Shown here piece after piece: positions 812 through 61,912 of a stretch of DNA of 64,000 nucleotides; position 1 is the first letter of the stretch, and each line of letters opens with the position of its first letter. The position numbers and the translations under genes are program-made. The notes below the pieces were generated by a model that made no database searches, was not told the DNA's origin, and saw nothing but the letters and a program-made list of their open reading frames with translations. Source of the stretch: Octopus vulgaris (lineage: Eukaryota); the NCBI GenBank assembly GCA_951406725.2, contig OX597817.1:112902001-112966000 (forward strand), read 5' to 3'.

Positions 812-1125
812 TAAATTCAATTAGAGGATATGTTAACCTCATGAAGGGATGGTTGCATCCAAGGAAATATTGGTTCAATACCTAGTATTGTTGGGGAATT
901 AAATTCCCTTAAAACAATAGGTATATATTAAGCATATAATTTATATACAGTTAAAGGAAAAAAAGGAAATGGAGATAAGGAAGTTAACAATTATTTATTA
1001 TTAACAAATTGGTCATCTTCGCTTCTTACAGCCGTTTCAATTAATACTCAATAATTTAATTATAAATTTGTACATTAAATTTGCATATATGTGACATGAG
1101 TATAATTTCATCAGAGAAAAAAAGA
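812..1125 (-). mobile_element. Penelope-like element terminus (pLTR) abutting a (TA)n tract
   Basis: Carries a hammerhead core and begins right after (TA)n. Its first ~80 bp resemble 63005-63090, which also follows (TA)n. Confidence 0.55.
1023..1118 (-). ncRNA. Type I hammerhead ribozyme motif
   Basis: Minus strand: TTCT-CTGATGA-aattATACTCA...TGAGTATtaatt-GAAAC-GGCT-GTA-AGAA. Helix I TTCT/AGAA, near-palindromic helix III ACGGCTGT, GUA cleavage triplet. Confidence 0.75.
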
Positions 1126-1519
1126 TGGACCTATCAATTCATTTCAGCAGACTGAATATATATATTGTTATACTTTGGGATGGCCATATTTTGCCAAGTA
1201 TACACATACACACTATATATTTGGTCTTCACTTCAGCTTTATTTTTATTTTTTTAGTGTCTTTGTCCAAGCTCTTTCATCATACATCCTGTGATCTCATT
1301 AGCGATACTTTGTCCCACATATCTCCTCTTATTCTGCTTAGTCCATCATGCACACACACACACACACATGTACATATATAATCAACTGAATAATTAGGTA
1401 CAATCAATGATCTTTCTCCATGTTGAATTATTATTGTTTGGTGAGCAGTCCAGATGTAACTGTCCTGTCTTCATCTATGACATAATACATTGAGAACATA
1501 ATAAGCCAATATGTTCATT

Positions 1520-2240
1520 CAGATATAATTAGGTTGGAATTTGAAAGAGACATGGTTGCGGTTACATGAAACCAAATAACAGAGAAATTATTAGTCCCAC
1601 TTTTATATCATTACACTGTTCATTAGACATACATATTATTACAGTCCATCCATCATCTTGTTACACTGTACACTACATACATTTCAGAACATCTATTATA
1701 CACTCTGCCAGATACATTATCACAGTACATTCTCCATAATGTTACATTCTGCACCAGACATGTTATTATCTATTATATTGTTATACAGACACATTATTAT
1801 TATACTGTACACAAGATATTGTTACATTATACAACAAAGAGCAACATTATTATAGTCCTTCTATAATATTGTTACACTGTACGCTAGCCAAGTTATTAGT
1901 CCTGCTTTTATATTTTACACTGTATATTAAATAGCCACATTGTAACAATCCTTCTACTATAGTGTTACATTGTACACTAAATGGTATTAAGCAAAGACAC
2001 ATGGAAAAGGAACTGTCCCAACCACACACATACAAACACACATGTATGCACAGGTATGATTTTAAACCACATCCAGTAGTGGGGCCTTGGTTCAGGAGTT
2101 CCAGGGTTTTAGAGGAGTGTGGGACCACCTCTTAGTCACTACTGTTTCCAGATTTATTACAGTCCTGCTATTATATTGTTAAATGGTATACCAGGTAGTT
2201 GTATTATTATAGTCTTATTATACTGTTACACTGAAAGGTT
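1520..2240. repeat. Degenerate ~38-40 bp minisatellite
   Basis: Recurring variants of ATATTGTTACACTGTACACTAG..CATTATTACAGTCC; more copies near 2550-2660. Confidence 0.7.
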
Positions 2241-58292: not shown

Positions 58293-61204
58293 CACCAATA
58301 CCATGTTTTGTTTCCTTTGTGAATGAAAACTTATAACAAAACATAATATTGCATCAAGTTTGCCTCCAAAATCCCCATAAAAAGGTTATTCTCATTGCTT
58401 GGCTGTCCCCTGAAATTTCCTTTGTTTTAGGGAACCATCTCATTGCTTTATTAGCATGTACAAAAGAAAGTAATCAGTTAATCACACTTGGGTTGCTTTT
58501 GCATTCAGATTTATCCTGTTTCATTCTTCATCATACTGTATAGCAATTTTGTAATTTCTTAAAGTATAGTAATTCTTTTTCAAATAATTCTGTAGTCTTA
58601 TTATCCTATCACATCATATAAACATTAAAAAATATCATTAGATACCAAACTAAAAGTTGTTATAGAAAGAGTGAAGGGAGGTAAAAAGAAAAGTGTTGTT
58701 GCAGAATCATTAGGATTTGCACTGTCAGCTTTTAAAACCATAATACATCAATCTAACAAAATGAAAATTTCCATGTAAAATTCAAAGGAGCATCATGCTA
58801 ACATATGCATGCATAAAAATCAAGAAACACATGGAAAAAAATATAAAACGCTTGGGTAGATAATATATCACAGCATCAGTTACCACTCTCCCAAGCCATT
58901 TTCCACCAAAAGGCATTAAATTTAGTTAATTGAGGTGGGATGGAAGAAGTGTGCAGCTTATTAATTCAGAACAAAATTGGAAGAAATAGAAGAGACATTT
59001 ATAAGCTAATAGCTGTCATATATCACTAGCCAAGTCTTTGCCTATCATCTGAGTTATATATTTTTTTTTATATGAAGTCTAAGATACTTGTGTATGACTG
59101 CAGCACTGTTCCAGGTATGTGAAGTATTCCAAAATGAGTCACATTTCTCAAGAACTGAGCACTACAACATGTGGCAATAGACTGGCATACATTTTTGAAT
59201 AGAATGGAAGAACGAAGATTTTGATGACAATATAACCTAATGCTAAAGTATTCTGTTTTTGCACTAATGGAATTGATTCTATCAGTTTTGGTCATGTGAT
59301 TATGTTGGAGTGATTAGAAAAGTTTACGTGCATGTATGTGGTGTTGAGGCTGCTGGAAGAAGAGTTTGTAAGAAGTTTGTGTGTGTGCAGTTTGAAGTTG
59401 GAAACAAACAGATAGCAAAAATGGTAGCTTTATGAGATGGAGAGCAGTGATTCAAGGATTCTGCAAAATTGATGAAAAGCAAAATGTCATAGGTGAAACT
59501 TGAGTTGCAAGGTAGCTTACCAATACCATATGATAAAATATACACTACCAGGAAAAGGAATGAAATTATTTTTGGACTGATTTTTTTTTTTTTATATTAA
59601 AACCTTTTTCCTTGTTATGTATGTGTGTATGAGTCGGTGTAGGTATATGTAGATTGTGCGTGTGTTTGTTCTGCATTGTAATAAAAGAAATAGTATTTTC
59701 ATTAAGATTGAGAGTGAAGCCTTATCTCTATTGTTTAGACAATAGTGAATGAAACCTTGAAATACATTAATGACTTAAATTACTACCTTGTATTAAATAA
59801 TGCTACATCTTTTATACAAATATAGGTCAAGCCTTCATATATATTTTGTAGGTTGACATGTTTGCTAATATTGTGGGTGTGACAGACACATCAAGGATAA
59901 TTATTTACAACTGTTAAAAAGCTGTGGATTTTTTTTCACAGGAGATTGCACAGAAGTGATATGTGTAATAGAAATATTTATTGCTCAGAGAAAGAAATTA
60001 GCAAAGTAATGTTTTCAAAAGTGCTTTACTATTTCTTGAAGATAGCTGTATCAGTGTTGGTAAGCAAGTAGGTTTTTAATTAGCATAATTTGCTGACTTT
60101 GCAAGATTCATTGCATGTCAGATGGGTAGGGGACTTGAAAAATTTTTTTAAACCAGTGTATATCCCCTTTCCTTGGATAATACTTACTGTAAGGACAGCA
60201 TTAGTTTTTTTTTTAAATTTCATTTCTATATACAATTTAAGTATAACCTTGACTTTCTTTTGAACCCAAAGAACAATCAGTGGCTAACACTGTTAATGGC
60301 AAGTAAAGCCAGATGCTAAATTCACTGGCTGAATTTTAGAATTATATTTTCCTCCATTTGATCTATTACTATTTCTTTTGAAAACTGGTTGAATAAACTG
60401 CTTCTTCTCAGCTGCTGTTTTTTAATACAATTTCTTTAACCTATATTTCAAAGACAAAACTCTTTCAATAAACACTTTCTGAAAATAAAATAAAACTAAA
60501 GGTCTGTATATTTCTTTACTTTTTTTAAATACCTATTTCTTTACTTTTATATAAAGTACATTCAGTTATTGCTATTATTAGGACATTCAGGAGTCTCTGA
60601 GTTCTAAAACTGACAATATAAGTGACAACTTTGGAGTAGAAGCAGTCAGAAGTAACCAATTATAATATTACTGTATATCTCAGAACTACACATGTTAGCA
60701 GTTGGGATGTTAGGGTGGTTATGCCTTTTTCAAAAATATTAACCATATAAATGAAGTTAAATGTCTTCAATCACCAGTCGAAACTGATTTGCAAATTTTT
60801 CTCATTGATGGCTTACCATTTTCTTACTCAGTGGTACTTCTCAGTGTTCTAAGTGATTTCTTATAAGAGGTGAAAGAGACTTAATCATTTAAACTGACTG
60901 CTTATTTTATCAACAGCTGACAATCTTTTATTTTTTCTTCTTATTACAAATCAATCAGAAGAAAAGAAGAGCAGTACTTATGACCTTTGCAGGTGTCCTT
61001 CCACATGGGTGAAATTGATTTGGTATCAGCCCAGCCCAGATGTCTGCTAGTCACTGTTTGCGGGGGACAAAAACAAAGAAAACCTTGGGAAAGAAACTAA
61101 GGATCTGATCTGATTGCTTTAACCTTTTAGTATTTAAACCATCTCTCTCTCTTTCTCTCTGTTATGCATGTATACACACACACATACACACACACACATA
61201 TATA

Positions 61205-61912
61205 TAATAATAGTAGGGAATATAATTCCAAAACTTACAGGGAAAAAAACAATTTTAAATGAAATTTCACAATATATAATATATGAATATAATTTAGAGA
61301 AAAACCACTATTAAACAATTCAATAAAGAAAGATGTTATTCACACCATATAGAAAACATATACTATAAAAAAAACTTATTTTAAAAATCAATAAAGTACA
61401 ATAAATAGTAAATAGTAGTAAAAAGACTATGCACATTTCATGGCTATATTTTCAAATAAATAATAATAATAAAATCAATTCTTTTCAAAATTAAATCGAA
61501 CTAAAATTAATTCTCTTTAAAAATATAGTCACTCATCAGGTCTAAGATAATAAATAAAATAAATAATAATAGAATATATGTACTTATCTTAACTTATACT
61601 AATTATCAAATAAATATATAAAAAATACATGTATTAACTATAAATAATTGAAAAGCATTTAACAATATTTCTTAAAATGAAAATATAACTTGTTGAAGGA
61701 TTTTCGTTAACTCGATTTGATTTTATTATTATTATTATCTATTTGAAAATATAGCCATAAAACGTGCATAGTCTTTTTACTACTATTTACTATTTATTGT
61801 ACTTTATTGATTTTTAAAATAAGTTTTTTTTTATAGTATATGTTTTCTATATGGTGTGAATAACATCTTTCTTTATTGAATTGTCTAATAATGGTTTTTC
61901 TCTAAATTATAT
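61205..61912 (-). mobile_element. Penelope-like element with inverted pLTR copy
   Basis: 61287-61477 is the reverse complement of 61718-61912 (~190 bp, few mismatches); contains a hammerhead; flanked by TA/CA repeats. Confidence 0.75.
61424..61543 (-). ncRNA. Type I hammerhead ribozyme motif with long helix II
   Basis: AGAC-CTGATGA-GTGACTATATTTT...AAAATATAGCCAT-GAAA-TGTGCA-TA-GTCT; helix III ATGTGCAT is near-palindromic. Confidence 0.8.

Follow-up and report, generated by a model that had tools for sequence, protein, structure and literature searches.

The pseudo-long terminal repeats (pLTRs) of Penelope-like elements (PLEs) are already known from published work to carry hammerhead ribozymes (PMC4209133; PMC8557442). 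We analysed a 64,000-nucleotide stretch of the Octopus vulgaris genome (assembly GCA_951406725.2, contig OX597817.1, forward-strand positions 112,902,001 to 112,966,000; hereafter the window, numbered from its first letter) in which an earlier note, made from the letters alone, had pointed out hammerhead cores and partial cores. These motifs are very probably pLTR hammerheads of endonuclease-bearing Penelope-like retrotransposons, left as 5′-truncated and inverted 3′ ends. New here are a long helix II with compensatory changes, families whose core carries C in place of U at position 4 (U4C; standard hammerhead numbering is used throughout), and intact young copies of Hydra-clade elements.

Craig et al. 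2021 (PMC8557442) described (TA)n targeting and pLTR hammerheads in the Hydra clade of PLEs, including Hydra-1_Obim of Octopus bimaculoides, and list as diagnostic for this clade an RWK-type motif, DKT, CxCx5C, CxxC/CxH and the absence of CCHH. The octopus elements share these features together with a GIY-YIG endonuclease (EN) at the C-terminus, (TA)n insertion, a pLTR hammerhead and inverted 5′-truncated copies. However, their unit measures ∼5.6 kb with a 2.1-kb 3′ untranslated region (UTR), compared with “generally <3 kb” in the published account, and their helix II domain spans 56–93 nt, compared with at most ∼26 nt in the Hydra rows of its File S2. Hydra-1_Obim is listed with a hammerhead whose helix II is short and which represents a separate family from those found here, and the same report marks as deviating one plant PLE in which loop 2 measures 34 nt.

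The minimal hammerheads of PLEs (PMC4209133) resemble ours in their type I architecture, palindromic helix III and extra base after A9, and also in occurring mostly as solo copies and opposite-strand pairs, with many families per genome. Of the families defined below, D has the same GAAANNUH layout as the descriptor given in that report. The descriptor requires CUGANGA and a stem II of 3–7 bp with a loop of 3–10 nt, and therefore would miss families A, B, C and E, with their long helix II and 8-nt helix III, as well as most of D, which is U4C. Thirty-one recently active Penelope-like families have been reported from O. vulgaris (PMC13282606), in an account whose available text does not contain the word “ribozyme”. 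Neither Hydra-element hammerheads with a helix II of 50–100 nt nor U4C cores of PLEs are described in the literature searched, although repeat databases and supplements may hold such examples.

Hammerhead cores in the window

The layout scored was CUGANGA - helix II - GAAA-N-N4-N-UH - helix I with no more than 4 nt in loop III, and 300 block-wise dinucleotide shuffles of the window served as the control that the earlier note had proposed. This strict descriptor yields four matches, at 1114(−), 34418(+), 35840(−) and 61539(−), whereas three of the 300 shuffled windows hold one match and none holds more. All four have a canonical type I core (CUGANGA, GAAA, NUH and helices I to III). Hammerhead A (1023–1118, minus strand) combines CUGAUGA with a helix II domain of 69 nt and helix III ACGGCUGU, and its predicted cut lies after 1027. 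Hammerhead B (34412–34498, plus strand) likewise has CUGAUGA, with a helix II domain of 56 nt (60 in the family), helix III ACGAUGGU and a predicted cut after 34492. The core of hammerhead C (35733–35843, minus strand) reads CUGAAGA and is accompanied by an 86-nt helix II hairpin, helix III ACAGCUGU and a helix I of 3 bp, with cleavage predicted after 35736. Hammerhead E (61424–61543, minus strand) carries CUGAUGA, a 93-nt helix II hairpin and helix III AUGUGCAU, and would be cut after 61428.

Five complete cores had originally been proposed, and these four stand. The remaining one, hammerhead D (36770–36804, minus strand), is a variant minimal hammerhead with the core CCGACGA (U4C at 36799), a helix II of 12 nt and a predicted site after 36774. 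This degenerate copy departs from the canonical core by U4C and by a broken 15.2–16.2 pair, reading GAAACAUU where the family has GAAACGUU. All four proposed 3′ halves are present, although G12 is replaced by A in the one at 61748–61775(+), and those at 22978–22993(−) and 23019–23034(+) are the two arms of a single inverted pair whose junction falls within helix II. Truncation inside helix II also accounts for the half at 23626–23642(+).

Decay is visible in several copies. The 5′ strand of helix II in B is damaged beside a sequence gap, and its palindrome has a G-G mismatch relative to the family, while helix III of both E and D carries CpG-type changes. An Rfam scan (E≤1) gave microRNA and small nucleolar RNA models on microsatellites throughout the best 150 of its 348 matches, with no hammerhead family among those listed.

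Coding elements behind the ribozymes

Because they are 5′-truncated, the copies in the window are non-coding, but longer copies of families B, C/G, D and E run into reverse transcriptase (RT)/GIY-YIG frames. An inverted pair of family C copies encloses a GIY-YIG frame located 2.4 kb upstream of the ribozyme, and a search with this frame returned 18,182 candidates, with open frames of up to 960 amino acids (aa). Twelve stretches with matches to the family C endonuclease were fetched; every one has a C/G-type pLTR downstream, in 11 cases with an intact core. At one locus (L139) the order is pLTR, 960-aa frame, 2.1-kb 3′ UTR, pLTR and inverted copy. The two cores there lie 5,579 nt apart, and the first ATG follows ∼510 nt past the predicted cut. 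The frame carries RWR (50), DKT (151), YRDD, CxCx5C (822), CxxC (920) and CxH (948) and lacks CCHH. The family G end in the window shares 82–89% identity with the pLTR found in Hydra-clade elements that have long open reading frames (ORFs).

The pLTR of family B lies 1.5 kb behind a 709-aa RT+EN frame at locus L195, which is 39–41% identical to the L139-type frame and, although its N-terminus is missing, retains CxCx5C, CxxC and CxH. The EN end of this family recurs at five other loci and is present in degraded form in the window at 32229–32934. Families B, C and G are thus, by their protein motifs, Hydra-clade elements with RT and C-terminal GIY-YIG. For family E, remnants of a Hydra-type EN occur upstream in 3 of 20 loci.

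Family D, in contrast to Hydra elements, has a CCHH-type EN. In 3 of 10 long loci a broken RT and/or CCHH-type EN lies collinearly beyond a 2-kb microsatellite-rich UTR, and one of the family's loci (L312) has an additional upstream pLTR. Its frame shows DKG, YIDD, a CX4CxxC linker and the CCHH-type EN. The DKG motif, CX2-5CxxC linker and CCHH in the C-terminal EN are shared with the Neptune clade, and by eye the frame is like that of Neptune1_Ap. Nematis shares the linker as well, and Neptune was preferred by eye; on this comparison D is a Neptune-like element. It differs from the described clade in its family-wide U4C core and in that all three ORF-bearing copies seen are broken. Family F was found behind a broken Neptune-like frame in one of nine loci.

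The earlier reading of these motifs as diverse Penelope-like termini is thereby supported for B, C/G, D and E. The link to PLE coding frames that it called for was made for B, C/G and D, by EN only for E and at a single locus for F; none was made for A.

Several other elements were seen during this work. Two young Neptune-like families have 784-aa open frames, at L229 3833–6184(−), where RVT_1 and GIY-YIG are recognized, and at L234 1861–4212(+). By eye, their ends bear the deviant cores UUGAUAA...GCAA and UUGAAAA...GAAA, with a U3-A8 pair. Their ends differ from those of D, F and A, and they were therefore dismissed as possible parents of these families. A Hydra EN beside a family A copy (L064/L240) was likewise rejected as the A parent, since the family to which it belongs is a different one and has a ribozyme of its own. 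This third Hydra-type family forms an inverted pair at L240 3471(−) and 5697(+), with a short 3′ UTR, a CCGAAGA core, a helix II of 31 nt and a helix III of 9 nt.

Structure of helices II and III

Matches in all retrieved loci (154, duplicates included) were clustered after requiring a helix I of at least 4 bp, which leaves out C/G. The 32 resulting clusters include 18 in which the helix II domain reaches at least 40 nt. Helix III is fully self-complementary in 19 of the 21 clusters in which it is 8 nt long; the descriptor fixes its outer two pairs only, and chance would give full self-complementarity in ∼15% of clusters, which are not independent of one another. Self-duplexes of helix III have predicted energies of −11.1 (C, F and G), −9.7 (A), −6.0 (E) and −3.2 kcal/mol (the B copy in the window; −5.8 for the B family). 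Unrelated families thus retain the palindrome, in agreement with the proposal that several families with differing helices keep a conserved structure.

Helix II domains of 56–93 nt place A, B, C and E outside the published descriptor, while D and F fall within it; complete family F copies have a helix II of 21–28 nt and mostly a CCGAUGA core. Compared with mononucleotide shuffles, helix II folds better than expected in C (z −6.7), G (−7.8) and E (−3.5). In an alignment of ten C/G-type sequences, 97% of the cells are paired, compared with 32–44% in slid controls, and both sides have changed in 6 of 27 pairs, a value reached by 2 of 500 shuffles. The covariation check that had been suggested therefore favors helix II of C/G and, in a four-sequence alignment that includes the damaged window copy, helix I of B (both partners altered in 3 of its 6 pairs), while helix II of B finds no support.

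Origin of the motifs and the role of cleavage

The assignment to endonuclease-bearing PLEs draws on family membership, linkage to RT/GIY-YIG frames, 3′ ends fixed at (TA)n with variable 5′ ends, the palindromic helix III and the paired long helix II. A number of observations weigh against it. No parent ORF for family A was found in 20 + 30 flanks or in four 5-kb upstream extensions, and Pfam and PDB searches gave no match for the Hydra frames. Family E is likely of the Hydra clade on EN remnants only, and F is tentatively Neptune-like from its single locus of nine. The clade calls come from motifs and by-eye comparison. Helix II of A and B folds no better than shuffles (z −1.1 and +1.2; −1.1 for a B family copy), and helix I of C/G has just 2–3 bp. 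Covariation in C/G is supportive rather than proof, as it comes from ten related sequences that also supplied the structure and appears to reflect few independent events.

If the assignment is correct, the element protein would nick (TA)n DNA and reverse-transcribe, likely in target-primed fashion, from a site 30–230 nt downstream of the ribozyme. Sequence on either side of the cut site is retained in complete copies, which implies that each would derive from a template whose ribozyme was uncut. Early stops and fold-back would yield the truncated and inverted copies. An uncut template agrees with data on an anole element, for which core mutants had no effect on in vitro insertion and cleavage required protein (PMC11167929). 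The prediction is that a helix III shared between two cores on the same strand is required for cleavage, which would take place within pLTR-ORF-pLTR transcripts, such as one spanning both L139 cores, or in trans by way of an intermolecular helix III of 8 bp. Low activity has been reported for PLE hammerheads even as dimers (PMC4209133), and here cleavage would probably be aided by the element's protein; published accounts of weak cleavage that depends on dimers or on protein favor this reading. In the window there is no same-strand pair sharing helix III, because helices I and III of C do not match those of D, and the partners of E and F are antisense; the solo copies there are thus likely inert. 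The 50–100 nt helix II hairpin is likely maintained by selection on master elements. A bolder version, which we regard as speculative and rather doubtful, holds that helix II of the Hydra clade became a selected hairpin module of this length that docks the element's protein and gates cleavage, present in ∼60,000 copies that are invisible to standard descriptors.

The same elements might instead carry ribozymes that are mere relics, of no catalytic importance in the masters either, retained as an RNA shape for protein binding or by plain inheritance. We consider this unlikely, although it is the strongest of the alternatives. The case for it begins with family D, whose exact core pattern matches 16,993 times genome-wide (one match in the control); C4 is present in 74 of the first 100 matches listed, so that the family has multiplied with a variant known to have much lower activity in vitro (PMC3088659). 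The U4 copies in D may reflect CpG decay or an older subfamily. C4 also occurs in six of the eight cores assigned to family F in an unbiased sample and in the third Hydra-type family of L240, and a U4C core is present in roughly 12,000 copies. The deviant cores of the two young Neptune-like families and the unimpaired insertion of anole core mutants (PMC11167929) point the same way. Against this, U4C still supports viroid infectivity (PMC3088659), U3-A8 is a compensatory core pair (PMC4209133), and the other core positions and the palindromic helix III have been kept across ∼30 clusters that otherwise share little.

These elements offer ways to approach the question. A family multiplied with U4C provides a natural experiment on the importance of cleavage for transposition, and young Hydra-clade copies with open frames of 955–960 aa and two identical cores are material for the clade's first biochemistry. 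Should the protein-docking proposal be true, the intact young elements together with the attenuated U4C family would make the role of PLE ribozymes in transposition directly testable.

Insertion pattern

The motifs could alternatively belong to non-autonomous retrozymes, whose spread relies on small circular RNAs produced by self-cutting, as the earlier note had implied in calling the population retrozyme-like and mostly non-coding. Non-LTR retrozymes (PMC7229834; Li et al. 2026 preprint) share type I hammerheads, a proposed pLTR ancestry and very high copy numbers, with 126,247 hammerhead motifs in the axolotl (Cervera and de la Pena 2020, PMC7229834), and a pLTR derivation has been proposed for animal retrozymes (bioRxiv 10.64898/2026.07.22.740005). 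Most octopus copies are indeed short and non-coding, and family A has no linked ORF and 5′ ends that cluster ∼65 nt upstream of the core. However, retrozymes are defined as tandem repeats with canonical hammerheads, and those described are 150–450 bp long and have circular RNAs, whereas the octopus motifs sit in truncated ends of coding elements, which lie dispersed or inverted. Of 105 loci, a set to which the window's own copies belong and in which some loci overlap, 27 show an inverted 5′ copy and 3 have another direct copy no more than 1.5 kb away, and the window contains no tandem head-to-tail hammerhead array. Copies end not at the cut site but at (TA)n, 30–230 nt past it, with variable 5′ ends; longer copies extend into ORFs, and even in family A four copies continue upstream for another 200 nt or more. 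Such an arrangement matches that published for PLEs and not the tandem pattern of retrozymes. For B, C/G, D and E a retrozyme origin has already lost ground and, taken over all families, it seems very improbable to us.

The inverted pairs of family F (23011–23016 in the window, and L150–L169) repeatedly have their junction in helix II, leaving both arms without the CUGA box. At L106, a short interstitial telomere-like (CCCTAA)n tract lies ∼400 bases from an inverted family C copy.

Abundance

First-look candidates in the 2.8-Gb assembly (227 contigs), of which 40 per family were scored, number 3,227 for A (1023), 1,101 for B (34412), 2,195 for C (35733), 2,385 for D (36770), 1,883 for E (61424) and 2,408 for F (22978/23019). 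An exact 14-nt 3′ half common to A, C, F, G and other families matches 18,019 times, whereas its reversed control matches 46 times. Sampling 50 regions at round coordinates (499,900 bases) gave 17 canonical and 6 U4C cores, with none in each of ten shuffles; U3-A8 cores were not above shuffles in this sample (4 versus 0–3). These counts already refute chance matching in AT-rich, microsatellite-rich DNA, for which the low complexity of the window and a fifth, loose match at 63690(−) might have spoken, the latter being rejected as probable chance since its loop III has 17 nt and loose matches occur in 18 of 300 shuffles.

The sampled rate is one canonical core per 29 kb, or one per 22 kb with U4C cores included, so that the one ribozyme per 10 kb first proposed is too dense, while four cores in 64 kb are compatible with the sampled rate (P 0.18). 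Genome-wide this corresponds to ∼95,000 canonical cores (Poisson 55,000–152,000, the true range being wider since matches cluster) and ∼129,000 with U4C, in line with the very high abundance that had been claimed and compared with 2,000–9,000 in PMC4209133. Helix II exceeds the published descriptor in 11 of the 17 sampled canonical cores, and animal hammerhead censuses would thus miss most canonical cores of this genome.

Element ends and their surroundings

The family A element end (802–1157, minus strand) is 5′-truncated and has a small internal deletion upstream of the core. One family F copy (22840–23016, minus strand) reaches beyond the end of its inverted partner (23011–23105, plus strand), and both are truncated in helix II. 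The family G end (23625–23815, plus strand), also truncated there, has TA tracts on both sides. The family B Hydra-clade remnant (32229–34523, plus strand) comprises a degraded ORF end with the endonuclease C-terminus at 32767–32835, the 3′ UTR and the pLTR, and stops at an N gap. This copy (32229–34524), beside a gap of 100 N, is indel-rich with TA-like substitutions and is 81–94% identical to L195 by segment, irregularities that may reflect assembly error rather than age.

The 3′ UTR and pLTR of a 5′-truncated family C Hydra-clade element (35561–36676, minus strand) end at a TA tract, and the family D end with its Neptune-like pLTR (36677–36882, minus strand) is joined directly to the 5′ end of this copy. 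The same junction, in the same orientation, was seen at two loci (36676/36677 in the window, and L038), and may have arisen by insertion into the TA tail of D or by template switch. Family E is represented by a 5′-truncated Hydra-type 3′ UTR and pLTR (61204–61712, minus strand) and by an inverted partial copy (61712–61915, plus strand) with the degenerate half.

Although the ribozymes had been said to abut TA/CA microsatellites, it is the elements that adjoin them: from the predicted cut to the first TA-type tract downstream, the distance is 69 nt in the plus-strand F copy, 143 nt in E, 172 nt in C, 179 nt in G and 213 nt in A. In B the N gap is reached after 31 nt, and the 3′ end of D abuts C directly. 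TA tracts make up 16.5% of the window, compared with 3.3% of the 50 sampled regions, so nearness to TA alone is weak evidence; the proposed TA targeting is instead upheld by the 3′ ends of family copies, which lie at TA tracts.

Very long TA arrays of up to 6.5 kb occupy 25317–26940, 28698–32257 and 41915–48425. Between two of them, at 26950–28605(+), is a 5′-truncated LINE-type RT frame of ∼550 aa (Pfam RVT_1, E 5e-28) that is not Penelope-like. Approximately 3 kb upstream of the window, at L241 6932(−), there is a further candidate hammerhead with CUGACGA, a helix II of 31 nt and ACGUACGU.

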